A stretch of 62,725 nucleotides of DNA, counting the filler, from Chrysochromulina tobinii (Eukaryota), in NCBI GenBank assembly GCA_001275005.1. It is 5 parts of 5 records of this genome, joined end to end, with 100 filler letters (N's around TTAATTAATTAA, not from the genome) between each part and the next. Parts side by side here need not be neighbours in the genome. Positions count along the whole stretch, not along the records: positions 1 to 16,216 come from JWZX01001313.1; 4 more parts are not named here. One strand, written 5' to 3'. Under the pieces are notes generated by a model, which saw only the letters and a program-made list of their open reading frames with translations, was not told the DNA's origin and did no database searches. Position numbers and translations under genes: made by a program. Positions 1 to 62,725 of this stretch are shown piece by piece; position 1 is the first letter of the stretch; the number at the start of each line of letters is the position of its first letter.

Positions 1-175
1 GAGATACATGTATCTTGATGTATCTGATGTGTATCCCAAAATGTATCTTGGACTCGTTTGGGATACGTGTGAAATACATGCAAAATGTCAAGATACATGT
101 ATTCTCTTGGAATGTAACAGAGCATGTAACATACATTTGAGATACATCAGGATACATTCGGGATATTACATGTAT
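1..175. repeat. AT-rich degenerate repeat tract built on GATACAT/ATGTATC motifs
   Basis: Palindrome GATACATGTATC at 3-14 and many GATACAT/ATACAT and ATGTATC copies up to ~175; much lower GC than downstream. Confidence 0.5.
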
Positions 176-870
176 GGTGTTGCGGTTGGTCCATTCGATG
201 TGGAGATACGTCCCCTGATTTAGGTTGGTCTCTGCTGATTGCGGCTTGGACGATGGCTGGTGTTATTTCGGCTTTGATGGCTGGCCATGTGCTCATGAGG
301 GCGTCGGAGAAGGTTCGGGCGGCTGCTCCTTTAAGGTAGCGCGGGGCGTGGGTGTAGCTGTAGGTGTATTCGTTCATTTCGTCGTCGGTCGCTCATCGGC
401 TATGTACTCTCTGTGTCTTTTGCTTGCGGTTCGCCGCGGTCCCGTCCTGTGGCCGGTCTCGTCGTATGTGGCTACCCAGTACCCTGTTCCGCCGTCGCGC
501 TCCGGCCAGTCGCATGGGCCAGTACCGGCTACCGCGGCTACGCGACCTCTACGGGCCCGCTTGCCTCACTTTTAAAAGTCGGACTTTTCGGCGCCGTTGG
601 CGTTGCGCTCGCGCCGCTCGGGCTGGCGACTGCTCGGAACACCGTACTTCACCGTACAGCTGCACACCGTACACGCTTCGTATGCCTGGGTACCCCCCTC
701 GCCACGTGTTCGTGTACGCTGCCTGTTGGCATGTTTCTTACCTCCGGGACGCCCGCCCCGCCGCTCCCCCCCGCGCTGATGAGAAGGCGATGGCCGATGA
801 AAAGAGAGAAGACGCAGCGAAATGGAGGCGCGGTGCACCAAGGATGTGGTGAAGCGTATAGCACCACGCA

Positions 871-3353
871 TCATACATTGAGGGCATCTTTCTCACCGAG
901 ACCCGAAGCAGGTGCACGCAGGTCACATACTTCGATGGCCAGCTCCTCCTGCGCAGCCACCAAAAGATCGCGCTTGGTTCGCGCGTGGTGGTCTCGGTGG
1001 TACTCCGCATGGAGGTACGAGTACGCTTTGTGCCTGAAGGTCCGCTTGCGACCCACCGTGAAGCCGCGCGGAAAGAGGGCGTTCACGGTGTTGGAAAAAA
1101 AGAATTGCAGGAAGTCCGGCGCACGGTTCTTAATCTTGACCGCAGCAGAGAGCGCCAAGCGACCGCGCATGCCCACGTGGTTGAAACCAACCAGGAACAA
1201 GGTTCCGACTTTGCACTCGTCGCTCGCCAGCCGCAGCCGCACCGCGTCTGCAAGGGCGACGGCGCCGGCATCGCCAATGTCGTTGCTGCCCAGGTCGACC
1301 AACTGCAGCTCGCGCGCCTTGCCCATGGCGATGAAGGCCGCGAAGGATTGCAGGCCAGCGTCGCCTAAGTCGTTGCCGACGAAGAAAATCACCTTGAGGC
1401 CGGGCGCGACGCCACTGATCAGCGCGCTGCCGAGGGCCTCGACACCGCGTGGGCCCAGGCGGTTGAATCCAAGGAAGAGCTGCTCGAGCTGGGGCAGCGC
1501 GCCGGAGGAGAGGACGCCGCTGATGGAGGCGAGATGCTCGTCGGTGAGGCCGGTAAAGTTGAGATCGAGCCTCTTCAGGTTGACGCAAAAGTTGAGCGCC
1601 TGGCCGAGCCGTTCCGGCGAGCGCCACGGGTCCTTAGGGTCGAAGGGGATGCCGAAGAAAGAGAGCTCCTTGACGCAACCGAGGACGGCACGTGCCGTCT
1701 TCTCGTAGAGTGCGAGCACCTGCGCCCGGTCGGCGCCGTTGGTGAAACTGCGCTCCTTGAAGAGTTCCTCCATCCGCTCGGGCGTTGTCGGCAGCCTGCG
1801 AAGTGCTGCACGCTGCTTGCCGAGGTCGATGACGAGAGGCCAACCCGCCTGATGAGGGAGGCAATCAGGCTGATGAGGGAGGCAATCAGGGCTCATCAGG
1901 TTGATGACGAGGGGCCAACCCGCCTGCTGAAGGGTGAACGTCTTGCCGAGCTCCGCAGAGCACCGTTCGAACGTCGTCCAGCCGCGGCTTTCGTACGTGC
2001 GAATTGCATCGAACGATTTCGGCAGCTTCTTGGGCAGCTCGGTGAGCAGAACGACCGTCGTCTTGGAGTGCGCGTACCACAAGTCCATCGTGTGATCGAG
2101 TGCGAATTTCGTCGCCTGGGCCTGCGCCTCCGTTCGGCTGTCGCGGTAGCGCTCGGCCGCGCGCCGCTGGTCCTCGGTACGCTTCTCTTCGGCTATGAGC
2201 TCGGCCGGAGTCCACATCCTCGGATCCTTCTGAAAGAGGGAGGCCCAGTCGAAGAAGACGCCCATGTCGCAGAAGCCGTAGGCCTGGCACACGCCGAGCA
2301 GCCCAGAGCGGCGCAGCACGCCGAAGCTTGGGAAGAGGGTCTCCAGCCGTGTGCACAGCAGCCGCAGCTGCTCGCCATCGCAGTCTGGGTGCCTCGGTTC
2401 CAGCCAGCAACTGCGAGTGCACGCGGGGACATGCGGACCGTGTGAGAGGTGGGCGCCGGACACAATGAGGGGGATTGCAACTCAACGAGGGGGCGTTCGG
2501 CGCGACGTGACGCGTACTATGAGATGGCGACGATAGGGAGCAGGTCATCGACGTTGCGCTTGACAAACTTGCACGAGAAGATCTTGAAGAGCACGCGCAA
2601 CGCGCGCTTGAGCAGATTACCCTCACCAAGCTGCACCTCGAGCGTAAACGTCTCGTAAATCGAATAAAAGTCCACGCCGCGCTTCGCCTGCCGTGAGATC
2701 TTCTGCAGCTCGTCGACGCCGATGAAGGCGGCCTCAGGCAGCTCCTGCCGCCGCGGCAGGACGCCGCCGTATTCCCTGTGCACGCTGCTACCTGGCTGGC
2801 CGAGCGCGAGCAGCCACGACAGGCGCACCAGGCGCACCGGCCGCTCGCTCTCCTTGACGCCGTCGCCTTTGAGCGCTTCCCAGACCTCATCGTGGCCGAG
2901 GTAGCGCCGCGCAGCCGCCTGCGCCTCTTCGGAGGAGACGGCAGGGCTCGTACCTCTCGGGTGTGAGAGTGCCACCTCGCGAAGCGATTGGGATGGCTTG
3001 AGACGCTCCGAAGAGGGAATGCCACTGCAGGAGCACAGCCTGATGCCGACGGTCAGGCACAAGAGCGAGAGTGGCAGATAGATAAACTCCACACTCAAGA
3101 CGATTGCACTCACGATGCCCATGATCAGGGTCACGGGCAGGATGCACAAGTGGACCGCGAGGGGCATCGCGAGCAAGTCATGCAAGTAGAGGTGCGCCGC
3201 GAACACATGGACCGGAAAAAGAACGATGAGCAGAATGGGCGTGGCGATGGTCCCAATGAGCAGCATGGCCTGGATTACGTAACAGAGGGCGATTTGAATG
3301 GATGGCTTCCATGGCAGCGCGGTGCCCGACGGCAAAGTGCGGGCGGAGTTCAT
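871..3353 (-). CDS. Membrane-anchored HET-like domain + RI-type LRR protein (3 exons)
   Basis: ORFs 2517-3353 and 871-2463 join through GT-AG intron 2411-2517 (IVAISY|CWLEPRHPD). In-frame GC-AG intron 1849-1923. Hydrophobic N-terminal helices; HET-like motifs AISYCW, FFDWASLFQ, MDLWYAHS, YESRGWTTFER; C-terminal RI-type LRRs (LFLGFNRLGPRG, VDLGSNDIGDAG). Confidence 0.75.
1849..1923 (-). other. 75-nt GC-AG intron flanked by exon duplication
   Basis: Intron start copies the downstream exon (AGWPLVI encoded twice, 2 mismatches over ~28 nt); ends in two copies of CTGATTGCCTCCCTCATCAG. Confidence 0.7.
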
Positions 3354-3687
3354 CCACCAGGTGGATCCTGACCAACAAACATCGTTTTCCCACAGCCCGG
3401 AAGCGACCCATGGTACAATGTTCTCCCATGGTATATGTCCTGTGGGCGCTTCCGCGTCCGTGTGGTGGTTACAAATTGTGTGGACACTTGGGCCACGTGG
3501 CTAGAGGTCAGCACCCAGCCCCTGTACGCGATATCGCGATTCCTCTTCCGTGGTGTGGTTACAAATTTCGTTGGGACAGGTGGTTACAAGTGTCGTGAAA
3601 CGCAGCTGGTTACACTTCGTAGCGAGTACCTAGGAAGTTCCTAGTGCCAAGGAGCGCCGTATCGTGCACTTGGGACCACGATAGCAT

Positions 3688-3966
3688 GGGCTGTGTCGGC
3701 CACACCTCCGTCCATAGTGACCGTGGTCCTCGTGCTTGGGGGTCCGGAGTGTGTGCGCGCGTTGTGTTGAACAGCAGCAGCACCATCGGTACTATTGGGT
3801 TACGATAGGGGGGAGGGTCTCACCTTCCCCCGCCCGCCGCCGATTAACGGCCTGTGTAATAGCAGGCTGTGTCGGCCACGCCTCCGTCCATTGCGATAGC
3901 GGCCCCCGTGCTTGGGGGTCCGGACGGGAGAGCGCGCGCGTTGTGTGTGTTTCACAGCAGCAGCAC
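3688..3966. repeat. Two imperfect ~100-bp direct repeats
   Basis: GGCTGTGTCGGCCAC...GTGCTTGGGGGTCCGGA...ACAGCAGCAGCAC at ~3688-3783 and ~3866-3966. Confidence 0.7.
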
Positions 3967-4297
3967 AGAAATACGACACAGCATGGCCTGTACTGCCGTT
4001 CCGGTTGAAGACCCTGGGGATGCAGGAGACACGTTCACAGATATACTACGGTACGACCTATGCAGACACTCTGCGTCAAGCCCGACACGTCACGTTGCAC
4101 ATTGTCGTGCCCACGGTCCCAGACACCGCGCAGCGGCGTCGCGCGGTCGGGAGCCTTCTCGTTGTCCCCTGCGCACTGCACGCCCTTCTCAGTGTCCCCG
4201 CCCAACCTGCATTACGAGCACAAAGAGGGTGCTCGCCTCGGCGCCACACCCGCCGTCAACTCGCGCCGAGCAGCATGGTGCCCGGCCGGGCAGATCG

Positions 4298-4462
4298 ACT
4301 AGTACCATATAGCCCAAAAAGGGGGTGCCTGGCAGAACTAGCCCGAAAAGGAGGTGATCAAACTAGCCCAAAAAGGGGGTGATTGCACTAGCCCAAAAAG
4401 GTGGTGATCAAACTAGCCCAAAAAGGGGGTGATCGCACTATCCCAAAAAGGGGGTGATCGCC
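4298..4462. repeat. ~25-bp tandem repeat overlapping the PKS-NRPS stop codon
   Basis: About six copies of ACTAGCCCAAAAAGGGGGTGATC(GC/AA); the last encodes the C-terminal ITPFLG*. Confidence 0.85.
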
Positions 4463-7400
4463 TCGGCCACTCCCGCCGTCAACTCGCCGAACATCATCGT
4501 CCAGTGCGTGCCCGGCAGCTCGATCTTGTGCACCGTTGCCCGCGTCAGGTGCTGCAGCGAGCTCAGGAAGACGCATTCGCTCTGGTATGGGCGAGCGTCC
4601 ACGAGTGGGCAGCGCACGAGGGGGGTAGGCGTGGGCACGTGCGTGTCGAGCAGCCGATTGCATGCGACAAAGTGGCGCGCGGCGTTGGCACTGAGGCTCT
4701 CGAGCATCGCTTCGTCGTCGATCAGGGGAGCCAGCTGGGCGCGGAGCACCTGCCATTAGGTGCAATCAGGTTCAATCAGGTGCAATCAGGTGCAATCAGG
4801 TGCAATCGGGTGCAATCGGGTGCAATCATGTGCACTCGGATGCAACCATGTACATCAGGTGCAATAAGTTGCAATCAGGTTCAATCAGCATGGAGGGAAG
4901 CCAGCTGAGCACCTGCATGACCGCATCGCTGCGCGGGCTACCGTTGGCATCAAGACGCGGGCGGCCGTCCACATCGCTCGCTGTAGACGGATCGTGGAAC
5001 CCTCGGCCCTGCGTCTGCCCGAGTGGTGCATCGAACATGAGCACGGAGTGCACTGCTGGCAGAGGAGTGGGAAAGGTGTGTAGAGCTGGAGGCGCTGCGG
5101 AGGTGGGAGAGGGGTCGTCTTCACGCGCCATCTCGAGCGATCTCGCCTCGAGCTGACGCGCCATCTCGAGCGCCACTACACCACCGTACGACCAGCCGCC
5201 AAGCACGACGGCGGGCGACGCGCCCGCCATGGCGCCGCCCGCCACGGCGCCGCCCGCCACGCCGCCGCCCCCCAAGCCAAGTGCGTCGCTCATCAAGACG
5301 AGGCACTCCGCCGCAACCTCGGCGATCGACCCAAGCTGGAAGTCGCCGCCGTCGGTCAGGCAGCTGTCGTCGAAGGCGTACACGGGCCGTTGGTGGCCGA
5401 GGCGCCGGACCAGCGGCAGGTAGCACAGGCTACTTGCGCCTGCCGGATGGACCAAGAAGAGCGGCAGGTGCGTTGACGAATCCCCCGGCTGCAGGCACAC
5501 CATGCGCAGCTGGCGGGCGGGTGTGCCGGCGCTCGGGACGGCGCTCGACGCGCTGCCGCCGCCGTCCGCGGCGGTGGCGGCGGTGGCGGCGGTGGCGGCG
5601 GCGGCGGCGGCGCTGGCAGCGCTGGCATGCATTTGCGAGCAGATGCCGCGCACGGTGGGCTGTGCGAACAGTTGCTGGACCGTCAGCCGGGTGCCGAGCG
5701 CCGTCCTGAGCGCGAGCAGCAGCCGCAGGGCTGAGACGGAGTCGCCGCCTAGCCTGAAGAAGTGTGAACGTTCACAGCAGAGGGTCGCTACCGGTAGACG
5801 GAGGATGCTTGCCATCGCTTCACGCACCGCCGCCTCGACTGCGTCTGCTGGCTCCTCCACGGCGGGGGAGGTGCCCGACTCGGCGCCCTGCTGTGCGGAG
5901 CTTCGCCTGGTGGGCGGGGGGAGCCGTTTCCGATCCACCTTGCCGTTGGGGCTGAGCGGCACCTGCTCGAGCATCGTCCAGTGATGAGGGACCATGTAGT
6001 CGGGTAGCTTCTCGGCGCACAGGACACGGAGCCTGGCCTGCACGGCGTCGGCGTCGGCGGCGTCGGCTGTCCCGCCAACGGCTGTCCCGCCAACGGCTGT
6101 CCCGCCAACGGCTGACCCGCTAACGGCTGACCCGCTAACGGCTGACCCGCCAACGGCTGACCCGCTAACGGCTGACCCGCTAACGGCAGGCACCACGTAC
6201 GCGGCCAGCTTCCCTTCAAACACGGTAGCGGCCGCGCTCGCCACCGCAGCATCCTTGGTCAAGATCTCCTCAATCTCGCCGAGCTCGACGCGGAAGCCGT
6301 TCACCTTGACCTGCAATTTGAGGCAATCAGAGGTCATCAGAGGTCATCAGAGGCCATCCAATGCAATCAGAGGCCATCAGAGGCCATCGGAGGTCATCAG
6401 AGGCCATCAGAGGCCATCATCAGAGGCCATCCGATGCAATGAGAGGCCATCCGAGGCCATCGGAGGTCATCCGATGCAGTGAGAGGCAATGACCTGCGAG
6501 TCCTCCCGTCCCAAGATTTCTAGTAGCCCATCAGGGCGCAGACGACCAAGGTCGCCGGTTCGGAAGAGCATCGGTCCATTTGGGGTCGAAGGCGTCGTGT
6601 CGGGCGCGCCCGTGCGCAGGAATTGGCGCGCGCTCTTCTCGGGCTCCTGATGAGGGAGGCAATCAGAGGTCATCCGAGGCAATCAGAGGTCATCCGAGGC
6701 AATCAGAGGTCATCCGAGGCAATCAGAGGTCATCTGAGGCAATCGGAGGTCATCGGAGGTACCTCGTAGTAGCCCAACGCGACGCCTGCGCCGCCGATGT
6801 GGATCACGCCAGTAACCCATGGCTCGCAGTGATGGAGGTTGTCATCAAGGATGAGCATCGTCTGGTTGCGTAACGGCCGCCCGTACGGGATGGACGTCCA
6901 GTTGGGATCGGTGCTCAGCACGGCGCCCGGTGTGCCCTCGGGATGCAGCTCGTGCATATTCGACCAGATCGCGGCCTCGGTGGCGCCGCCCATGCTGATG
7001 ATGCGCAGCGCGGCACACTCGGACACGGCACGGATGCGCCCTGGGGAGAGCGCGCGCAATCCAACGAGCGATCAGAAGGCAATCGAGGTCAATCAAGAGA
7101 GATCAAGGGAGATCGCACCTGGGGAGAGCGCGCGAAACCAACGAGCGCTCAGAAGGCAATCAAGGGCAATCAAGGGCAATCAAGGGAGATCGAAGGAGAT
7201 CGATGGAGATCGCACCTGGGAGAGCGCGCGCAATCCAGTCTCCGCTCAAGAAGATGAGACGCAGGCAAGCGGGCAGCGTCCGGCCGGAATGCTCCGCATG
7301 CGCAACGAGCAACTCCATGAAGGCGGGCACGGTGTTCCAGATCGTGATCTGGTGCGAGCTCACGATCTCGAGCCAGATCTCGGGGTCGGGAGGGCTGATG

Positions 7401-10400
7401 AGGTCGTGAGGGGGCACGACCAACGAGGCGCCCGCGCCGAGCAGCCCGAAGACGTCATAGACGGATAGGTCGAAGCTGATGGACGAGAGCGCAAGCACGC
7501 GATCGGACGCACCGACGTCGAAGCGCTCGTTTAGGTCGAGGCACGTGTTCACGGCGCCCTGGTGGTGGCAACACACCCCTTTTGGAACGCCCGTCGAGCC
7601 CGAAGTATAGATGAGATATGCGAGCTCGCGGGGGCGCACGCGCCGTACTGGGCGCGGGTGAGCACGACGAGTGGCGTGCATGGCGTTCACGCCGACCGCC
7701 TCGTTCACACCGACCGCCTCGTTCACGTCAACGAGTGGCAATCCAACGGCTCGAAGCCATGCACACGCGCCGAGCGTGCTGGCGTCGCTCACGACGGCGC
7801 TCGCGTGGCTCAGCTCGAGGATCTGCTCGATGCGCTGCTGAGGCAGCTGGTCGGCGTTGATCGGCAGGTACGCGCAGCCCGCGCGCAGCACGCCCATCAC
7901 GGCGGCCACCTGCTCCCAGCCTTTGGTCGTCACGACGGCGACCACCGTGATCGAGCCGGGCGCTGTGCCGGGCGCTGTGTCGAGCGCCGAGCCAGGCGCC
8001 GAGCTGGGCGCCGCCGCCGTCTCGGGCGCCGTGCCGGCCTCTTCGGTGGCCGCCACTCCAACGTCCGCAAGCCGCGCCCAGACTGCCTCGGATGCGTGGT
8101 CGAGGGCGCGGTACGTGAGCGACGAGGACCGCCCACCCGAGGCATCGAGCCCGAGGACCGCCAACGCGTCGTGCCGAGCGCCCGTTGCATGCTCGGCGAA
8201 GAGCTCATGCAGCAGGCGTGTGTCGAGCTCGGAGGGAGGTGCGACCGGCAGCGCCGCCGTGGGCTCGGGGCGCAGCTCATAGACGAGTTTCGTCCACGCG
8301 CTCTCGTCGGTGCAGAGGGAGTGCAGCAGCCCCTCGTACATGGAGACCATCCCCGTCACCACCTCTGTGGGGAAGAGATCCTGCATGGACGCGAGCGAAG
8401 CCGGCGCCATCAGATGCCATTTGGTGCCATTGCCATCGGGTGCAATCAGGTGCCATCCGGTGCCATCCGGTGCCATCCGGTGCCATCAGGTGCCATCAGG
8501 TGCAATCAGGTGCAATCAGGTGCCACGCACCCGCATGATCTCGAGCAGCCACATGAGGCGCCCGTCGGGGTATTCCTTGACCGCATTCACCACGTACGAA
8601 CCGGGCGTCGCCTCTTGCACATGCACCTCGGTGAATTGAAGCTCGCGCCAATCGGACAATGCATGCTCGAGGCCCATCGCACTGACGAAGACGAAGGGTG
8701 CGACAGCGGCACCCGCTTGGTGGTGTACCTGCGTGGTCCGAGGCAATCCGTTGCCCTCAGAGGTCATCAGGTGCCATCAGGTGCCATCAGGCGTTCTCAG
8801 GAGCACACTCGGGCACACGGGCGCACTCATGTTGCAGTCCGGCGCAGTCAGGCGCCATCGGATGCAATCAGGTGCGATCCGGCGATGCCCACCTTGTTGT
8901 ACTGCTCCATGACCTCGACACCCGAGATCGACGCGTGCTCGAGATCTCGCATGAGCTCGTGCGTGAGTGCCTGGACGTGCTCCAGCACCGTCCTAGGTCG
9001 CTCAAGGTCAGCCTCGAGGAGGAAGGACGAGGAGAAGTTGCCGAGGATCTGGGAGGCGTCAGCATGCAATCACAGTGGTAATCAGTGGTAATCGGTGGTA
9101 CTCGGTGGTAATCAGTGGTAATCGAGGATCTGGGAGGCGTCAGCATGCACCGGGTGGCGATAGGGTGAGGAAGGCAATACGCGAGGCTATACGTGTGACG
9201 ATGAGCGGTACTCAGCAGTACTCGGTGGCAATCAGTGGTCATCAGTGGTCATCAGTGGCGCTCAGAGGAGGCGTGACCTTGGAAACGTCCTCGTGCACCG
9301 GGTGGCGCAGGCAGTGCAGGATGTTCAAAAGGAAGCGCGGGTGGCGAGCGAAGCGCGCCAGCACCAGGCAATAGATCGTCAGCATGACCGAGGTGGGCGT
9401 CACCCCGCGTGCGGCACAGCAAGCCTTGAGGCGCGAGAACATCTCGGCGCTCAGCACGGCGCCAATGTGACTAAACTCGCCCGTGGGGCGCCGTTGGCCC
9501 GGGGCCACAAGCATCGGCAGCTCCGGCGGCGGCGGCAGTTGCGGCACGCGATCCCACCAAAACGCCTTGGCAGCTTGGTACTCGGCGGAGGCCGCGAGCC
9601 CCGACGAGCCCTTGGCGCCGTCCTGAGCGCCGGTGAGGGAGAGGCAGTAGTCTTTGTACAGCAGCGAGCAAGCCGGCAGTTGGGCGTTCGGATCCTCGTA
9701 CAGGATCGAGAGCTGCCGGCGCATGGTCAGGTCGGACACCCCATCCATAATGAAGAGCGAGATGCAGAAGTGCATCGTCGACTGAGTGGGCGAGGTATGC
9801 GACACACGGCACTCGAAGAGTGGCCACGTCTCGGGGCGCGGACCTGTGGGGAGAGGGCGCGCCATGGTGAGCACTTGCATGCATGTGTGTATGGAAGAGT
9901 GGCCACGTCTCGGGGCGCGGACCGTCCCGAACCATCTGCGCCCTTGTGGCGAGCATCTGCTCGGGAGTCGCATGCCCATGCGGCGTCTCCACCGTGATCA
10001 CGTACTCGGGCACTCGCTCCAGCACGCGCATCATGCCGTCCGGCGTAACCACAGCGCGCCATGCCGGGTGGTGAGCACATAGCCGGTTCAGAGCCGCCTG
10101 CAGGCGTGCGATTAGAGGTCGTCAGAGGTCGTCAGAGGTCGTTAGAGGTCATTAGCGGTCATCAGAGGTCATTAGCGGTCATCAGAGGTCATCAGAGGTC
10201 ATTCATTAGCGGTCATCAGAGGTCATCAGAGGTCATCAAAGGTCATCAGAGGTCATCAGAGGTCACCTGCAGGCGCGAGATGTCGATCCGTCCCTTCCAT
10301 TGCCATTCAAAGTAGATCTGCGGGTTGAGCCCCTTCTCGGAGAATTCGGAGATGTGCAAGCCCACATAGTACGCCCGCGTGATGCCGATGAGTGGGAAGG

Positions 10401-13400
10401 GCTCGTGCGCCCTCTCGTGTGCATGCACCACCTGAAACAAGGGTGCCTCCTCCCCTGCCCTTCCTTGTATGGCAAGCCCGTGCTTCGCGTACGCGTCAGG
10501 CTGATCGAGCCGTTGGAGCGCCGTCTTGAGCGCCACCTGATCGTCCACGTGCCTGGCCAGCTGGCGTACGGTCGGCTTCTGGAAGACGGTGCGGATCGTG
10601 AGCTTGTACCCGCCGCGACGTCCTATCTCCTGTGAGGCAGAGAGGCCACGACAGAGGGGATCAGAGGGGCGATCAAAGAGGCCATCAGAGAGGCCATCAG
10701 AGAGGCCTTCAGAGAGGCCATCAGAGGCCATCAGAGGCCATCAGAGAGGCCATCAGAGGCCATCTGAGGCCATCTGAGAGGCCATCAGAGTCCATCAGAG
10801 GCCATCAGCTGAGAGGCCAACCGAGAGGGGATCAGGTCCTACCTGCACCAGCCGCAGGCAAAGCAACGAGTCGCCGCCTAATTGGAAAAAGTGAGCATCG
10901 AGGTCGATGGCTGTGGGGCCATCGAGCTTGAACACGGCCGCAAAGGCCGCTGCAAGCTGCAGCTCGGTCTCGGTGGTGGGCGGCGACACGACTGTATGGA
11001 CCGCCGCCGACGTAATTGACGTAATTGACGTAATTGACGTAATTGACGTAATTGACGTAACTGTATGGACCGCCGCCGACGCCACCGCCGCCGACGACGA
11101 CGACGACGCTGCCGCCGCCGGCGCCGCCAGGGGGCGCGCGGGCTGCTGCACGCTCGCACTTGGGGCCGATGGAGGGGGCGTCGTGCTGGGCACGGCGGCG
11201 GGTAGCCCGCGCTTGAGGGTGGCGGCGATGGTGGTTGCGAGATCGGTGACGCTCAAGACAGCGCTCGACGGCGTGCCCGGGCCCGCGGCAGTTGCGGCGG
11301 TCGTGCTCACCACGGCGCCTGCCATCCGCGGCGGCGGCAGGGTGTGCGCAATCTCGCCCACGGAGATGAGGGGCGAAGCAGCGAGATGCGTGAGCGTGAG
11401 CACGATCGCCTCGAGCATGCCCTCGAGAAAGGCGCCGTCGTGGGCGTCGCTCTCGGACGTGGCCACGACGCTCAGCAGGCTGTGGGGAGCGGCCGCCGAG
11501 CCGCGCTCCATTGCGAAGCGGACGGTGAGCGGCATGCCGATGCGATCGTAGATCGTAGGGGGGGCGGCGCTCACGCCGCCGTCGAGCTCGAGGCCCCATG
11601 CGGCCGATTGGTAGTCGACGATCACGAAGAAGAGGTCGCCATCTCGCACCTGTGGGGAAGGGAGGGCACCGCGCCGTGGTGAGCACTTGCATGCGAGCCG
11701 GGCCGGATTCAGATCGCGATCTCGGACCGAGCTCAGCTGCTTGATCTTCGTGAGCGGGTAGCTCTCATGTAGCTGACACAAACCGAGCTGCCGGTGAATC
11801 GCACGCGCCGTCGCGGCGGCGCCCGCCGCGCCCACGAGTGGCACACGAAGAGGCACCGTGTTCATCACAGGCCCAATGACCTGATGAAGAATTCAATCAA
11901 TAGGTCATTAGATGCCAATCAGAGGTCATCAGAGGCCAATCAGAGGTCATCAGAGGCCCAATGACCTGCGCGAGCTGCGGCACGGGCGCCGTGCGTCCCG
12001 ACAGGGCACACCCAAAGACGACCTCGTCGGCATCGGCCCCCTCGTACACCCACTGGACGATGGCCCACGCGGTGTGGCAGAGCGCAGCGATCGTCACCCG
12101 CTCCTGCACAGCAAGCGTCCTCAGCCGCTGCAGCACGGCGCTGTCGAGGACACACCGACGGCGCGTGGCGACGCCGGTCGCGGTTTCAGAGCAGCACATC
12201 TTTAAGGCGCCCAAGCCCGCCGGGATCGGGCGCGCCGTGCTGGGCAGGCTGTGCACCGCCTGCTGCCAGAACGCCTCGGAAGCGGAGCCCGGCTCGGCGC
12301 TTAGGGCGGCTTCATGACGCAGCTTTACCTCGTACGAGGGCGGCGGCGGCAGCGGCACGCCCGGCGTGTTGTACCCATGCGCGACGGCGTCGACGAGGAG
12401 GCGGAGGGACCATCCATCTTCGATGATGTGGTGGATGGACAGCAGCATCAAGTGCTCCTCTGCGCCAAACTGAAGCACGCGGACGCGAAGCAGCGGCGCG
12501 CACTCGAGATTTGAAAGCTCCGCGCGCTCCGTGGCCATCACCTGCTGCGCGAGCCCCTCGCGCGCGCGCACGCTCGTGCAATCGGGATGCACGCTCACGC
12601 CGAAAGGCAACTCGGCAGTCGGTTCGACGACCTGCTGCGGCTGCGGGAGCGCCTGGAGGTCGAAGCGCGTGCGCAGCATCGGCGTGGTGGCGACCAGCTG
12701 ACGCCACGCCGCGTGCAGTCGCGCCGTGTCGAGCGCCCCGTGGAGCTGCCACATGATGGAGAGGACAAAGGGGTGCTGCTCGGGGGAGCGGGCGGGGGAG
12801 GACAGTCAGCATGCAAATGGGGAGGGCAATCAACGGGTGCTGCTCGGGGGAGCGTGGGAGAACAGTCAGCATGCAAATTGGGAGGGCAATCAGCATGCAT
12901 GCACGCGCACCTGCTCGGGGGAGCGCAGGTGCTCGAAGATCATCGCGCGCTGGAGGGCGGAGGTCTCCATCACGAGCCCATCTCGGCGCGCGGAGGTCTC
13001 CATCACGAGCCCATCTCGGCGCGCGACACTTCGTTGATTGCCCTCCCCATTTGCATGCTGACTACCCTCCATTGCGATCCAACCTCGGTGCGCAGGGGGC
13101 GGCAAATCGCTCTCGACGACGGTGAGCCATCCATTCACATTCACAGAGTCGGACGAGCTCAGCGAGTGTGAATCGGCCGATCCGGCAAAGTCGACGGTCT
13201 CGGTCTCGTCAACCACGTCATCCTCGGATCCTAATTTGGACGAGATCTCGATCTCCGACTTTGTCTCCGGTTCGAGCGCCGTCCCGAGCGCCTCGAGGTG
13301 TGACATTGCCTCCTCGACCAGCCGTTGTACGCTCAGGTTCAGAAGCTCGTCCGGCTGGAGGTACATCTGCACGCGCGCCCGGCGCGGCGCGTCGTGGGGA

Positions 13401-16216
13401 AAGAGCCCGTCCAGGATCTGGTCACGGAGCTCGACGGACGAAAGGGAGTCGAGACCCCTCTCCACCAGAGGTGCCCATTGCAGCGCCTCCATCGCCGCCT
13501 CTGACGTGCCCTCGGCCAGCGGCAGCACCGTATTCACAGCCTGCTTCACGAGGCTCAGCACCGACGCACGGCTATGGCGCTCAACACGGCGCTCGGCGCT
13601 GCCGCGGCCACTTCCGTTGGCTTCGAGCACGCCCTCGGAATGGTGATCAACACGGCGCCCAATCTCCGGCGCCGAGCTCGCGAGCGCAGCGCCCGCGCCC
13701 GCGGCAGCGCTCGCGCTCTCGGCAGCGCTCGCTCGCGTCGTCGTCGGGCGCCAGCGCCACGGGTAGACTTGCGTGCGGTAGGCGGCAGCGCCGAGATGGG
13801 CACCGAGCATCGCTCGGAGGGGTGCGCACTCTGCAGGCGCGGCGGGGCGTCCGCGGCGACCTGATGGACAACGTGGGCGGCATGGGCGGCGCCGCTTGCA
13901 GCAGTGCGTGCGCGTTGCTGCCCCCAAACCCAAACGAGCTCACGCCCGCGACGGCGCTCGGTTCGGCGGCGGAGTCTGGGGGGGAGGCGCGCCGGAGGGG
14001 GGTGCCCGCGACGGCGCTCGGTTCGGCGGCGGACTCCTGGGGGGAGGCGCGCCGGAGGGGGGTGCTCTGTACCGGTAAGGCGAGCCCGTACGCCCGTAAA
14101 AAGGGGGCCACCTGGGGGTTGAGGGCGCTCAGGTGGCCATTGGTGAACGTGCTCGCCAGCCGGAGCGCAAGCGCCGTCTTGAGCATGCCCGCCATCCCGG
14201 CGGCGCCCTCGAGGTGGCCCACACAGGCCTTGATGGCGCCGATCATCACGGGCCGTTGGCGGTGTGGGGAGCGCTCGACGAGTGCGGCATGCAACGCAGC
14301 TGCTTCGATTGGGTCGCCGAGTGCGGTGCCCGTACCTGCGGGGATAATGCGCTGTGGTGAGCGCTTGCATGCAAGGCAGGTCATCAGTGGCAATCAGCGT
14401 ACCTCCTCACTTGCATGCAAAGCAGGTCATCAGGTGGCAATCAGCGTACCTCCTCACATACATGCAAGGCAGGTCATCAGGTGGCCATCAGCGTACCTCC
14501 TCACATACATGCAAGGCAGGTCATCAGGTGGCCATCAGCGTACCTCCTCACATACATGCAAGGCAGGTCATCAGGTGGCCATCAGCGTACCGTGTGCTTC
14601 GAGCAGCGTGACCTCGGCCGCCGTAACGCCGCCGTCAGCCAACGCTTGAGCGAGCAACGCCTGCTGTGCCCGCGCACTCGGCGCCGTGAGCCGCGCGGTG
14701 CGTCCGTCGCTGTTGACGGCCGTGCCGCGGATGAGGCACAGGGGCGGCAGCAGCCTTCTGCGCGAGCTCATCGGGCGTCGAGCTCCACCCTCGGGAGATG
14801 TGAGCTCCGCCTCGGGAAATGTGAGCTCCGCTTCCGGAGATGTGAGCTCCGCCTCGGGTGATTGGAGCTCGACAAGCAGCGCGCCGCCGCCCTCGGAGCG
14901 CACGTAACCGTCGGCGCGAAGGGCAAAGGCCTTGCATCGCCCCTCCACCGAGAGCATGCCCGCATGCTTGCGCACCTGATGAGGGAGGCAATCATCGGGT
15001 CATCAGTGGTCACCAGTGGTCATCGGTCGTCATCAGTCGTCATCAGTCGTCATCAGTCGTCATCAGTCGTCATCAGCATGCTTGCGCACCGCGAGGGCGC
15101 GAGGCGAGAGTAGCAAGTCGAACGCGCCCACGACGACGCGGTCCACGCCGCGGCTCGGCTCTCGCAGCAGACGCGCCGCCAGGTGCAACGCGGTGCCTGC
15201 CGACGAGCACGCGGTGTCGACGACGAGGCTCGCGCCGCCCAGCCCGAGCACATACGAGAGACGGTTCGCAGCGATTGAAGGGGCGACGGAGGTGCCCAAG
15301 AAGGCGCCGCCCCGGGCGCCGTGTGCACTCGAGGCGAGCTCGAACTGCCAGTCGTGATTTGAGAGCCCGACGCACACGGCCGTGCGGGTTTGGCTCGCCA
15401 TGTGCGACGGGGAGCGCAGCAGCTCGCCCAGTGTCTTCGGACGACTTTTGGCGGGGGCGGACGAGTCGCCCAAGACGGCGCCCACGAGAATCTCCGTGCC
15501 GAGCTCGAGAAGGAGCCGTTGATGAGGATCCATTGAGATTGCCTCCGCCTCCGCGATCCCAAAAAAGGAAGCTCCAAACCGCTCGGCGCCCTGCGGCGCG
15601 CTCAAGAAGCCGCCGAACGCCTCGCCGCCGCCGCAGGCATCGCCGCTCCAGCCCGGCGGGCCGGTGTGAATGGCATCGCCGTGTGAACGTAGCAGGCTTG
15701 TGAGAGCGTCGGAGCGGTTGCAGCCGCCCGGTAGGCGGCTGGACGTGAGCACGAGCGCGATGGGTGCCTCGACGAGCGGGCGAGCGAGCGAGGCGCGAGA
15801 CGCGCCGGCAGCGGAGCCCGCGTCAGCGGCAGCAGCAGCAGCAGCAGCAAGGGAGGGAGCGGGAGGGAGGCCGTCGCCACCGCCGCCGCTTTGGCTGGCG
15901 GCACGAGCGTCAAGGTAGGCCAGTACGGCGCGCGGCGTCGGGTGGTCGAATAGCAGCGTGCTCGGCAGCGGCGCCAGCTGCGGCGCCACCTCGCGCTCGA
16001 GTAGCGTGAGCAGCTCCGAGAGCGCGAACGAGTCAAACTCCATGTCCATCAGGGAGCTGTCGAGGCAGCTGGCGAGATCGATCGAGATTGAGAGGCTCGC
16101 ACCCACGCGCTGAAGCGCCGCCCCGAGCGCGCCGTCGAACTTAGGCGCCGATGCCGCCGGTGTCGCGGACGCCGCCGGCTTCACAGACAACGCCGTCGGC
16201 GCCGCCGCCGCCGCTG
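4438..16216 (-). CDS. Hybrid PKS-NRPS megasynthase, 5'-truncated at contig end: ACP-KS-ACP-C-PCP-Cy-A-PCP-TE
   Basis: ACP EFDSFALSEL; KS MDPHQRLLLE, DTACSS, EAHGTGTALGDPIE, GHLEGAAG, VSSFGFGGSNAH; ACP GLDSLS; C HHIIEDGWS; PCP FFQLGGDSL; Cy-like EPFPLIGITRAYYVG, WPLFECRV, GVTPTSVML, LGNFSS; A YTSGSTGVPKG, GGATE, FRTGDLGR, QVKVNGFRVELGEIE, NGKVDR; PCP FFRLGGDSV; TE HPAGA, GWSYGG, PGTHW. Fourteen GT-AG introns checked by hand join successive ORFs in phase; one junction (~13730-13900) is unresolved. Confidence 0.93.
4750..4912 (-). other. GT-AG intron with (TGATTGCACC)n repeats and 10-nt junction duplication
   Basis: GCAG|GTGCTC at both ends; phase 0 join of TE exons. Confidence 0.85.
6070..6190 (-). 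repeat. In-frame 15-bp coding tandem repeat (GSAVS/GTAVG)
   Basis: About eight copies of AACGGCTG(A/T)CCCGC(C/T) inside the A-domain C-terminal subdomain. Confidence 0.85.
6311..6493 (-). other. GT-AG intron with (TGATGRCCTC)n repeats
   Basis: GCAG|GTCA at both ends; restores GREDSQ|VKVNG. Confidence 0.9.
6647..6762 (-). other. GT-AG intron, 10/20-nt repeats, ends CTGATTGCCTCCCTCATCAG
   Basis: Restores ALGYYE|EPEKS in phase 0. Confidence 0.9.
7041..7215 (-). other. GT-AG intron whose 3' end copies the upstream exon end, with internal tandem duplication
   Basis: TGGATTGCGCGCGCTCTCC(C)CAG at exon end and intron end, plus a diverged internal copy; phase 1 join. Confidence 0.85.
8381..8530 (-). 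other. GT-AG intron with (TGATKGCACC)n repeats
   Basis: Phase 0 join EIMR|DLFP. Confidence 0.85.
8729..8892 (-). other. GT-AG intron with 10-nt repeats
   Basis: Phase 0 join YNK|VHHQ. Confidence 0.85.
9049..9277 (-). other. GT-AG intron with (TGATKACCAC)n repeats and duplicated acceptor
   Basis: Restores EDVSK|ILGNFSS; TGCATGCTGACGCCTCCCAG-ATCCTCG present twice. Confidence 0.88.
9844..9922 (-). other. 79-nt GT-AG intron whose first 29 nt exactly duplicate the downstream exon
   Basis: GTCCGCGCCCCGAGACGTGGCCACTCTTC after both donor and acceptor; phase 1 join. Confidence 0.9.
10098..10266 (-). other. GT-AG intron with (TGATGACCTC)n repeats, 10-nt junction duplication
   Basis: CGCCTGCAG|G at both ends; phase 0. 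Confidence 0.88.
10630..10842 (-). other. GT-AG intron with TGATGGCCTC(TC) repeats
   Basis: Splits the PCP: LRLVQ|EIGRRG. Confidence 0.88.
11650..11727 (-). other. In-frame 78-nt GT-AG intron with diverged exon duplication
   Basis: GTCCGAGATCGCGATCT vs exon GTGCGAGATGGCGACCT; shares GCATGCAAGTGCTCACCA...CCCCACAG cassette with 9844-9922. Confidence 0.75.
11881..11965 (-). other. 85-nt GT-AG intron with 15-nt junction duplication
   Basis: CAG|GTCATTGGGCCT at both ends; phase 0. Confidence 0.9.
12776..12910 (-). other. GT-AG intron with two copies of the upstream exon end
   Basis: CGCTCCCCCGAGCAG at exon end, mid-intron and intron end; two TGATTGCCCTCCC..TTTGCATGCTGACT cassettes. Confidence 0.88.
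12982..13083 (-). other. Probable in-frame intron carrying the shared cassette in antisense orientation
   Basis: CGAG|GTTGG...CGAG|AT; 33-nt tandem duplication gives an alternative acceptor at 13015. Confidence 0.5.
14336..14590 (-). other. GT-AG intron made of ~47-nt tandem repeats
   Basis: Restores EAHG|TGT (phase 1); GGTACG at both ends; ends in GCATGCAAGCGCTCACCACAGCGC...CCCCGCAG. Confidence 0.9.
14976..15089 (-). other. GT-AG intron with 15-nt junction duplication and (TGATGACGAC)n
   Basis: G|GTGCGCAAGCATGC at both ends; ends TGATTGCCTCCCTCATCAG. Confidence 0.9.
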
Positions 16217-41170: not shown

Positions 41171-41390
41171 CGGCGGCGATGGCGGCGGTGGTAGCAGTGG
41201 CACCTCGAGCGCTCGAAGCGACGCGAATGGCGCGGTCACGCGAGAGGTACCGCCCGACACGGCGCCGAGCCTGAAAAAGCGCGAGGCACCGTCCGAGACG
41301 ACGCGGGGGAAGGAGGAGGCGGCCGAGGATGGCGAGACTGAGGAAGGTGAGCTCGCGCCACCGAGCAAGAAGCCGCGTGAGGAGGAATGA
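41171..41390 (+). repeat. Diverged duplicate of the cyclin gene 3' end (46511-46740)
   Basis: Near-identical sequence with substitutions, fewer EEGEI units and a different stop. Confidence 0.85.
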
Positions 41391-46466: not shown

Positions 46467-46519
<53 letters not shown>

Positions 46520-46751
46520 TGGCGGCGGTGGTAGCAGTGGCACCTCGAGCTCCCGAAGCGACGCGAACGGCGCGGTCACGCGAGAGGCGCCGCCCGGCAT
46601 GGCGCCGAGCCTGAAAAAGCGAGAGGCACCGTCCGAGACGACGCGGGGGAAGGAGGAGGAGGCCGAGGAGGGCGAGATTGAGGAGGGCGAGATTGAGGAA
46701 GGTGAGCTCGCGCCACCGAGCAAGAAGCCGCGTGAGGCGATGCGGACATGA
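45035..46751 (+). CDS. Cyclin T/K-family transcriptional cyclin (4 exons)
   Basis: FLQESGHRLRL|..ATAIVFYHRFY|VATTCLFLASKVEETPKKL..ERELLRVLGFDLSVEHAY|RPL..IINDSLRT; introns ~45292-45385, ~45470-45573 (GC donor), 45789-46012. Confidence 0.88.
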
Positions 46752-59371: not shown

Positions 59372-59373
59372 AT

Positions 59374-62300
59374 GCGCTCGGCAAACCTATCGTCGGCAAG
59401 CTCAAGGAGAAACTCGCCAAGTGCCGCACGGAGAAAGGCAAGACGGTCTCTTCGGTCGAAGTCTGCAACGAGTGCGACGAACCAATCGAGCTCGAGTGCT
59501 CGGTGCTCGAGGCGCACGACCTCAACATCATGATCGACCTCAGCTCCAAGCCGCCGAGCACACCGACGACAATCGACGATATGCCCACGGCAATCCTGAC
59601 ACGCTTCGTCGGCCTCGCCGAGAGCACGAACCCGTTTGTGCTGACCGCTGTGTCGCACGGCTTCATGAGCGCCGTCAACGAATACGTCGAGAGCATCTAC
59701 GAGGCCGAGGAGCGCATGCACGCGATCGAAATCGCTGACTGCAAGTTGCGAGCAGACACGCAGCGCAAGGCGCTTGCCGCGTCCCCATCGCTGCGCGCCG
59801 TATGCGCCACGCAAATTCAGGAGGCATTCAAGCGCTTCCTCGACCGACGGCGCCACAACATCAGCGGCATCGAGCTCGAGATCAACTCGGCGATGCATGA
59901 GAACACTGGTGAGTCGACGGTGCGAGTGCAGATCGACGGCGGCGCCAACACGAACCTCTTCGTCTCCCAAGCTATCAGAGCGCGGGCGACAAAGACGGGC
60001 AGCACGACGCCGCTTGGACTCGCTGGCAAAGGCCAACACCTGCCGACGCAGGGCGATGCCAAGCTCACCATCGAGCTCATCGACGAGCTCTCAGAGGTGT
60101 TCGCGACGGGCACAATCAACGGCGTACTTGCACCAACGGGCCGGCGCGACCTCCTCGGCGTAACACCAGTATGGGATGTCGTGCAGCTCACCTTCCTGCC
60201 TGAGCCGTGGCTGCTCGCAGTCCATCCGGCAAGCGGCCGAGCGGGGACCATGACCCGCTGGAACGGGCTCTTCATCATGGACGCGACCATGACGACCACG
60301 GGCATCTCGTTCAAGCTGGACAAGACGCTCAAGCCGCACGACCTGTCGGCACTCATCTCATGCAAGGCTCACGAGGCCTCGGTCGTGGATGTGTCATCGC
60401 ACCACAAGTACGTGCTCCTGGCAGCGCAAATGCATGTCGACGCGTCTGGGCTCCGGCGCCTCGCCGGCACCGCCCCGACCTTCGACTTCAAGACGGTACC
60501 GACGACAGCGGCGCGCCTCATCGACACGGACATGATCAGAATTGCGGCCAACCTGCGCAAAGCACCTGCGGTGCAACGGGCGCCCGCTCTCCATCGGCCG
60601 ACCGAAGTCGGTCACACGTTCCAAGTCGACGGATTCGGGCACGTCGGCGTCAAGGCAGCCGGCTGCTCGGACACGTACCAGTGGCTGATCATCGACGCGG
60701 TCTCCGACTACATGTACGATCACCTGACGTGCACGTCGAACCAGGCCACGCTCTTCGAGTTCCTCGACACCTGGCACGCGAACGAGACGGCCCTCGGCCA
60801 CAGCCCCAAGGTCCTCATCTTTGACGCGTGCCCAACGTGGGCATTCGACTCCGCCTTCACCCCGCTGATCGCAGCTCGCTACAAGTGCAAGGCGATCGTC
60901 GCAGCGGGGGGCGACCACAACCGCATCCCGAAGATGGAGGCTGCGCAGGACCCACTAACGCGCATGGCAGAAGCGATGCTCAAGCGTCGTGTGTGGGGCA
61001 AAGGCTTCTTTTTGCATGCGCGCTCATACGCCGTGCAGATCAGGAACCACAAGGTGGCTCACCATCAGACGCACACGAGAGTCCATCGGCACACGGGCAA
61101 GCCTGCTGATGTCACATTCATCCTCTTCGGCACGACGTGCGCGATCCTCAAGGACGGGCTGAACTCACAGCGCACAGAGGTCGGCACGGAGCGCACGGAC
61201 AACGCCGACATCATCGGGTACGAGCCTAACGCCCGCAAGTACAAGCTGTGGAAGAGCGACACGCAGCGCATCATCCACCGCACGAACCCGCGCCCGCTTA
61301 ACGAGATGCAGCTCGCGCTGACGGGCATCCCGGCCAGTGGCACCGTGGTCGAGGCGGAAGTGCAGACGGACGACGATGCGACCTACGCGCCGCTCGTGCT
61401 CGCTGCCCCGCCGAAGCCACCGCCCGCACCGATCGTCATCCAGGCGGGCTACGAGCCGCTGCCTGATGGCACGCGACTTGAGATGTGCTTCGACACGGAT
61501 AAGCAGAAGCCCACATGGTTCCCGGCCACGGTCACCAAGTCCCACAAGCAAGAGTCGGGCAAGGTGTTCACCGAGCTGAGCTGGGACGACAAGAGCTGGG
61601 CCGACGATCCGAAGTGGAAGGGCAAACTCTTTGACCTCACATCGCAGCACCAGCCGTGGCGGCTGCTCAACGCGCCCTCGCCTGCCGCTACCGCACCCGT
61701 GCCCGCCGCGCCTATCGCCCCAGTGATCGCGCCGCAGCAGGGGGCGCCACGTCGAGTCCTGCGATCGACTAGGCTGGCAATGCCGGTCTCGGCTGCGCTC
61801 GAGCGCGTCCTCCCCGGGCTCTCGGAGACCGCGGCCATCGACACCTTCAACGCAATCGCACACCAATGGCTCGGCCACGTCGTGCCGATCGAGGTGCAGT
61901 CGATTGAGGAGCTCGACAAGGCACGCGAGCACATCCACCAGCTGGAATGCGCCCTCGACAAGATCGACCCGTTCCAGGCCGAGGTGAGCGCCACCGAGCT
62001 GGCCGATGGCCTCGAAGTCTCCAAGGCGCTCAAAAACATCGTCGACGTCAAGTCGGCGAGCGGTGAGTGGTACACCATCACCATCCCCAAGAACGAGCGC
62101 GCGCTCAAGGCCGACCCGAACGAGGCCGCATGGCGCCTCTCGCATCAAGCAGCTCACGAATCCGTCCTCTCGAACCCGCTGAACACGATGGAGAAGCGCA
62201 AGGTAGCCAAGGCACTCGGCGCGATCATCTCCCCGGTCGTGATGCAGGACTCCGTGAAGAAGGATCTCGTGACGCACGAACTGCTCAAGTTCAAATCCAG

Positions 62301-62725
62301 GCTCTGCTCCGCCGGTGACCAGGTCAAGCGCATCCAGATCGCGAGGGGCGTTGAGGACTATGCGGCCACGCACGCGACGATCTCGGACAACCTGCAATTC
62401 AAGCTCATGCTCTCGACGGCAACCCTCGGCGATGTTCAAGACGAGCAGGGACGCCGCGTCCTCCCTTGGCGAGATGGCCAAGACGAGCAAGCGCAAGCGG
62501 CCACACTGCGGGAGCTGATGGCCAAGGACCCAAAGCTCCGCCGCGTCCCGAACGACGTCACGTCCACGGACTTCAAGAACGCGTATCCGAAGGCCGCACG
62601 CCTCCGTGATGTTGGCTTCATGGAAACCTACGAACCAATGTACGACGATGAGGGCGACCAGCTCTGCTACAAGCTCGGCGCCCCGATCTGGGGAGAAGCT
62701 GCTGCGGGCAACGAGTGGGAGCAGG
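59374..62725 (+). mobile_element. Ty1/copia LTR-retrotransposon pol polyprotein (protease-integrase-RT), open at both ends
   Basis: Hand translation from 59374: protease VQIDGGANTNLF (~59926) and RRDLLG; integrase HTFQVDGFG..WLIIDAVSDY, KVLIFDACP, HNRIPKME; RT KFKSRLCSAGDQ, STDFKNAY, CYKLGAPIWGEAAAGNEW. INT-before-RT order defines copia. No LTR visible. Confidence 0.88.

Follow-up and report, generated by a model that had tools for sequence, protein, structure and literature searches.

To our knowledge, the origin of most new spliceosomal introns is unexplained. Screens for intron gain seek introners that are similar to each other from end to end. Short tandem repeats are abundant in the introns of haptophytes. 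Target-primed non-LTR retroelements leave target-site duplications of variable length; their copies are truncated to graded extents at the 5' end and carry poly(A) or simple repeats at the 3' end.

The published systems are described here and compared below as given in the cited parts of each source. Introners of Symbiodinium and of marine Chrysochromulina MAGs bring one splice site with them, and the target-site duplication supplies the second (Gozashti et al. 2022, PMC9860276). According to the same article, 3-9 bp duplications and/or terminal inverted repeats are present in part of the introner families only. C. tobinii is in its genome list, and introners are recorded for marine Chrysochromulina MAGs among the rows listed (32 of 214 places). 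Supplement file 7 of a 2025 introner survey gives 0 families for C. tobinii (PMC12130899). Break-repair introns of Daphnia are ~78 nt long, flanked by direct repeats, and polymorphic in populations (PMC4202315). Tandem genomic duplication of AGGT has been reviewed as a route of intron gain (PMC3443670). Replitrons are 0.9-3.6 kb elements with terminal direct repeats and a Rep gene, and a Replitron protein has been reported in C. tobinii (PMC10288648). Introns receive a single mention in the cited part of the C. tobin genome paper (PMC4580454).

The window, i.e., the whole stretch of C. tobinii DNA that was analyzed (62,725 nt), consists of five contigs joined by N linkers, with contig 1 at positions 1-16216. 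It was found in 13 mixed-culture DNA runs and partly in 6 RNA runs. Of 10 window proteins compared with a protein collection, each encoded outside contig 1, 8 were present there, and two of the clusters include a C. tobinii or C. parva member; contig 1 is presumed, on the basis of the assembly, to belong to the same organism. Contig 1 contains a hybrid PKS-NRPS gene with ~15 repeat-rich introns. Pfam analysis of this gene indicated ACP, KS, condensation, PCP, condensation, adenylation, PCP, and thioesterase domains. Its relatives among ENA proteins (1550-1570 aa, 54-63% identical) are possibly encoded without introns. The following features were read from the sequence, with further evidence given in brackets.

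4450..16216 (-): hybrid PKS-NRPS host gene; ends approximate, 5' end truncated at the contig end (Pfam and relatives)
9844..9922 (-): intron 1, 79 nt, composed of a 29-nt exon copy, 11-nt filler, 24-nt core, and pyrimidine tract with acceptor (colinear protein alignment upon removal)
9894..9922 (-): 29-nt duplicate, without mismatches, of the start of the downstream exon (9815-9843), source of the GT donor
9859..9882 (-): 24-nt core copy 1, with a putative branch-point-like CTCAC at 9871-9867
11650..11727 (-): intron 2, 78 nt, composed of a 17-nt exon copy with 3 mismatches, core, and acceptor (RNA, protein alignment)
11671..11694 (-): 24-nt core copy 2, the commonest haplotype
11881..11965 (-): intron with an exact 12-nt copy of the downstream exon and repeat filler (protein alignment)
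14336..14590 (-): intron 3, 255 nt, interrupting the ketosynthase domain; four tandem units of 47 nt are followed by a complete 67-nt unit at 14336-14402 (donor module, core, and acceptor) (frame)
14349..14372 (-): 24-nt core copy 3, with 2 mismatches to the pattern
14373..14402 (-): 30-nt donor module, common to own-donor copies elsewhere
14976..15089 (-): intron of a second cassette family, ending CTCCCTCATCAG, with a 14-nt downstream-exon copy in the same geometry

The 24-nt core matched the minus strand three times, at 9859-9882 and 11671-11694 with 0 mismatches and at 14349-14372 with 2; it was matched in 0 of 100 dinucleotide shuffles. From the core to the AG, the cassettes were 39, 45, and 37 nt, and their introns (79, 78, and 255 nt) were all GT..AG. 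These results agreed with an earlier note on this DNA, which had claimed that related ~37-45-nt cassettes end introns 9844-9922, 11650-11727, and 14336-14590. The duplications were also as the note had described them: the 29-nt copy at 9844 was exact, and the copy at 11650 was identical to the downstream exon start at 14 of 17 positions (3 mismatches). The third copy ended CCCCGCAG and overlapped the exon by just 5 nt. It was the tail of a complete 67-nt own-donor unit, with four 47-nt tandem units before it. Therefore, the third intron is not an exon duplication plus cassette. The three window copies have the A of CTCAC, the putative branch point, 22-30 nt upstream of the final base of the intron. 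No stable intron fold was found (z = -0.16, +2.04, and +0.52). Contig depth was ~4300 over the core versus 41-46, a value that does not measure copy number.

An RNA contig (run X14) lacked precisely the 78-nt stretch 11650-11727, the ends being canonical, and this stretch was retained in DNA run X1. Thus, the removal of a GT..AG intron from RNA, as for U2-type introns, was observed for 11650-11727 in one RNA contig. After removal of introns 1 and 2, the gene aligned colinearly with NRPS relatives (P0001, P0002, and P0005 in the case of intron 1, and P0002 in that of intron 2); several other intron ends in the colinearity model had been set wrongly by hand and were excluded from use. Among the RNA joints listed (15 of 488), none corresponded to intron 1 or 3. 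Introns 1 and 3 are probably spliced as well, judging from the frame and from the restored EAHGTGT ketosynthase motif. Introns 7041-7215, 10098-10266, and 12776-12910 (-) repeated 9-16 nt of the upstream exon end at their 3' ends and had repeat filler and no core. The 10098-10266 intron was bridged by an RNA contig.

A second shared acceptor cassette, with the CTCCCTCATCAG ending, was observed at 1849-1923, 6647-6760, and 14976-15089 (-). This cassette is unrelated to the core, and a downstream-exon copy was found at 21 of its 63 acceptors in the loci and the window. Contig 1 carried all three cores and four second-family acceptors, and the remaining 46 kb (16318-62725) carried zero. The few apparent introns in the genes of 16318-62725 looked ordinary by eye. 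A long open reading at 59373-62725 (+) resembled, by eye, a retrotransposon integrase/RT fragment. The 3' end of a cyclin-like gene was present twice (41172-41390 and 46500-46745), one copy directly after an N linker; it is possibly an allele or an assembly duplicate.

Metagenomes were then scanned with the exact core. At least 185 exact matches, 167 of them distinct, were obtained at at least 140 loci. The earlier note had proposed a shared acceptor cassette with further copies at acceptors elsewhere. The sharing was borne out, and 87 of 89 YCCCACAG acceptors with exon duplication had the whole core; the conserved unit, however, is not the cassette but the 24-nt core, which also occurs with its own donor or without splice sites. 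After removal of short flanks and near-duplicates, 159 exact-core copies were kept, in which a few orthologous pairs are still double-counted. A fuzzy search with the 3' half of the core gave 393 distinct hits, 230 of them with GCATGC at the expected place (149 from culture-type records, 78 from other records, and 3 from the window). Thus, as with introners, similar intron sequence occurred at many unrelated positions, with ~230 distinct copies in at least 140 loci plus the window. The prokaryote genomes searched for the core gave 0 hits. Viral contigs gave one (L141:601-660), in a contig that ends in core and acceptor; L141 is probably host DNA filed as viral.

Among the matches listed, 107 of the 159 exact-core copies had a pyrimidine tract and a YAG no more than 40 nt downstream (class A). 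A copy of the downstream exon, scoring above the 99th percentile of 1059 shuffled pairings, was located upstream of the core in 78 of the 107, and no duplication was detectable in the other 29. The exon duplication plus cassette, which the note had regarded as a minimal version of the event, is thus typical of acceptor-type copies; it also has one presence/absence case (described below), and the third window intron deviates from it. The exon copy started the intron with GT in 69 and with GC in 6 of the 78. It was 9-50 nt long with no fixed length (median 25.5 nt, as clipped by the scoring) and was exact in 27, with a pooled identity of 94.8%. The median intron was 80 nt, and the median donor-to-core distance was 37 nt. 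The base before the donor was G in 62 of 78, and AG preceded it in 30 of 78. Intron lengths were spread evenly over the three classes of length modulo 3 (36/36/30), and duplication length did not compensate for tract length (rho -0.10). Direct repeats around the insert scored at least 24 in 130 of the 159 exact-core copies versus 41 of 791 controls, tandem units included. A cassette-free census of GT..YAG with duplication gave 121 versus 29-117 in five control dinucleotide sets; tandem repeats swamp this census, and it was not used.

The core was all-or-none. Its 5' end was kept in 87 of 89 copies and its 3' 8-mer in 215 of 216. One haplotype accounted for 97 of 249 hits, a number inflated by the exact-match scan, and the next two for 31 and 26. 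Core, tract, and donor module recombined among copies. Sharp ends on both sides and few dominant haplotypes (97, 31, and 26 of 249) are consistent with the core being the end or minimal form of a non-autonomous mobile element. Such an element would be an introner, mobilized by the reverse transcriptase of a non-LTR element or by an HUH nuclease like that of Replitrons, and would make long, variable target-site duplications. Complete donor-core-acceptor units (e.g., window 14336-14402), the internal GCATGC palindrome, and a possible 5-bp hairpin also point to an element. The hairpin itself is a lead only: among 70 haplotypes, changes were one-sided, 33 of 55 changed cells still paired, and transitions at G-U pairs preserve pairing in any case. 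Further points for an element are the RG target of Replitron-1, which makes duplications of variable length, and a Replitron protein recovered from one C. tobinii locus (PMC10288648, part cited). Another is the G before the donor in 62 of 78 copies. However, the splice consensus is likewise G|GT, and the repeats that flank copies without splice sites did not begin at GT (by inspection). The unfixed duplication length argues against an element, as does the absence of inverted or direct terminal repeats, poly(A) tail, and graded 5' truncation from the core copies. Variable-length duplication was the one non-LTR feature observed; in place of graded truncation and a tail, the copies had a complete 5' edge (87 of 89) and ended in a C-rich tract and CAG. 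Rfam gave no match near the gathering score in 9700-14700, and the L115 insert (below) contains donor-specific filler from a neighboring intron. On this evidence, an element is possible but rather doubtful.

The donor module of 30 nt was carried by 17 of the 230 copies, and all 17 followed AG (class B). Their acceptor often resembled a copy of the upstream exon end; 4 of 17 passed the formal test, whose control was inflated by shared units. After the donor-module and acceptor types were excluded, 27 copies had the core between direct repeats with a period of up to 70 nt (class C), a set that includes some tandem units within introns. The period was 3n in 20 of 27 (p 2e-5) and, with one copy per locus, in 15 of 22, in contrast to the even spread of class A intron lengths. 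Nineteen of the 20 3n copies were in a stop-free best frame. They were mostly sense (16 of 20), as assigned by a strand classifier that was right in 82 of 102 known-sense cases. The pattern suggests that insertion was blind to splicing and that selection followed. In L008, L047, L104, L109, and L125, the core was located in the translated frame, several per gene, between duplicated peptides; the L125 copies were apparently antisense.

An all-against-all locus comparison gave few orthologous pairs. Compared with L013 and L053 (96-98% identical), L115 had an 81-nt extra insert at 262-342. The insert consisted of GT, a 33-nt exact exon copy, core, tract, and CAG, and was in frame, stop-free, and intron-like. 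Among 141 loci plus the window, the one other occurrence of its 49-nt tail was in the intron that follows in the same gene, 524 nt downstream, and that intron differed from the new copy at one base. The junctions overlapped by 2 nt and 4 nt (GC; G|GTG). In a protein cluster of 23, the 15 listed members all lacked the L115 insert and all had the downstream intron, with the proviso that 90% clustering might have separated filled alleles. Thus, presence/absence between close relatives, another introner feature, was observed in one case (L115 versus L013/L053 and 15 protein alleles), with the filled allele known from a single short metagenome contig. This difference is most simply read as a gain. 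The insert may instead be an assembly or library chimera, although such a chimera would need to recreate the architecture of the family. Near-identical cassette flanks were overrepresented among same-record pairs (3 of 52 versus 11 of 4889, p 0.0004), and 49 of these 52 pairs were not sisters. L096 and L100, which are different records, had 92 nt in common.

A local source would also be expected if the template were RNA, i.e., if unspliced pre-mRNA of the same gene were reverse-transcribed in place during repair, so that intron-rich genes seed themselves. All copies were on the same strand in 47 of 50 multi-copy loci, splice-less 3n copies were mostly sense (16 of 20), and the window cores and second-family acceptors were confined to one 16-kb contig, in favor of this explanation. 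However, same-strand DNA template switching predicts equal orientation and locality, the classifier was correct in 82 of 102 cases only, and L125 looks antisense. The data do not separate an RNA from a DNA template, and we consider an RNA template unlikely.

The earlier note had inferred different ages from the mismatches in the duplications. In class A, mismatches affected 8.5% of third codon positions versus ~4.5% of first and second positions (p 0.005, 72 framed introns of 102). This is the pattern expected from mutation in both copies once the duplication has occurred, with constraint on the exon alone. The mismatches were also mildly overdispersed (p 0.017). Exon-copy identity dropped away from the donor, being 0.96 in the first 5 nt. 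The mismatches thus look age-related, but counts of 0 and 3 mismatches do not suffice to date two copies this short. The correlation between cassette divergence and duplication divergence that the note had proposed was absent (rho -0.02, p 0.84, n = 109, low power). A lack of correlation would fit another explanation, in which the introns are old, exon sequence was copied in later by slippage or by conversion with spliced cDNA, the core is a selected or homogenized splicing signal, and no intron was gained. In line with this explanation, GCATGC and GCTCA varied less than the bases between them. Introns are also remodeled, since whole units duplicate in tandem: a 94-nt intron-plus-exon unit at L033:1150-1340 was tandemly doubled in one of L033 and L068 and single in the other (98-99% identical). 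Against old introns, the clean empty allele is the common one, the core also occurs in coding frames without splice sites, and the near-invariant 24-nt signal was absent from the other introns of the window. We regard this explanation as very improbable.

With about even confidence, we propose that the introns arise by template-switch repair, in which synthesis runs over the end of an existing intron and the target becomes duplicated, and that selection keeps spliceable or in-frame products. During DNA synthesis at a break, the nascent strand would copy B', jump at a short microhomology (2-4 nt) onto an existing intron, copy its end through CAG|GT, and jump back to the start of B, giving A-B'-cassette-B. 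The putative CTCAC branch point would come with the imported cassette. Microhomology-mediated or polymerase-theta-like repair is a candidate pathway. Three outcomes would pass the selection filter by being spliceable or keeping the frame. Core and acceptor may be inserted where the duplicate begins with GT or GC (class A). Donor module and core may be inserted after AG, with an acceptor that is imported or is a copy of the upstream exon end (class B). The core alone may be tolerated at a net gain of 3n (class C). General repair is favored over the enzyme of one element because of the variable duplication length, the mirror classes, the local source with donor-specific filler, and the second cassette family. 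The all-or-none core counts against repair, since random repair filler should be ragged; either splicing or copying requires the core in full, or the core is the end of an element. Also against repair are the single filled/empty pair, the 49 of 52 same-record pairs that are not sisters, the 4 of 17 own-donor copies that passed the formal test, and the 29 of 107 acceptor-type copies in which a duplication was not detectable.

Introns of the core type are real and widespread in the Chrysochromulina lineage, and they are probably still being made. More tentatively, and at somewhat less than even confidence, introns may beget introns without a transposase. A 24-50-nt splicing-signal cassette would be copied from a sister intron, often of the same gene and possibly via pre-mRNA, into a 9-50-nt exon tandem duplication. 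This would occur on a population timescale in freshwater Chrysochromulina, would be invisible to introner screens, and would leave in-frame peptides as by-products. For core introns, one can see the source, the target footprint, and an empty allele, and the lineage has relatives in culture as well as metagenomes of its populations. The rate, template, and polarity of intron gain are thus directly testable. Screens based on whole-intron similarity would miss introns of the core type, and other genomes may harbor such introns unnoticed. Predicted proteins also include the core when it is left unspliced (15 of 15 listed cluster members), a practical annotation trap.

No description of this architecture was found in a full-text search of the haptophyte literature outside subscription journals, and the cited parts of PMC11782384 and PMC8469720 contain nothing closer. 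A 17-nt piece of the core was absent from the searched part of the 2022 introner supplement. Like introners (PMC9860276), core introns are multi-copy in unrelated genes, co-opt one splice site from a duplicated exon, and leave the message unchanged after splicing. Unlike them, they share just 24-50 nt and have duplications of 9-50 nt, up to half of the intron, whereas introner duplications are 3-9 bp (4 bp in two figure examples) and introner similarity spans the intron. Similarity near both intron ends was not observed, as the 5' part is a local exon copy; neither were 3-9 bp duplications or terminal inverted repeats, as the 5' ends are locus-specific and have no stable fold.

Like Replitrons (PMC10288648), which have an RG target and fuzzy ends, core introns have variable-length duplications. 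G precedes the donor in 62 of 78 core introns, but this preference is confounded with the splice consensus. Unlike Replitrons, the core unit showed no terminal direct repeats or Rep gene, and the cited part of that source does not report intron creation. Core introns are similar in size to the Daphnia neointrons (PMC4202315), and both have direct repeats at the insert ends. The Daphnia introns, however, are AT-rich and mostly of unknown source, whereas here the shared intron end is GC-rich and the source intron was identified once (L115). As in the AGGT model (PMC3443670), splicing removes one of the two copies of a duplicated exon sequence. That model takes both splice sites from AG|GT, whereas core introns import the acceptor and putative branch point, and AG precedes the donor in 30 of 78. 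Introns that combine an exon copy with a shared core are a novel variety of intron gain, one in which the template can be identified.
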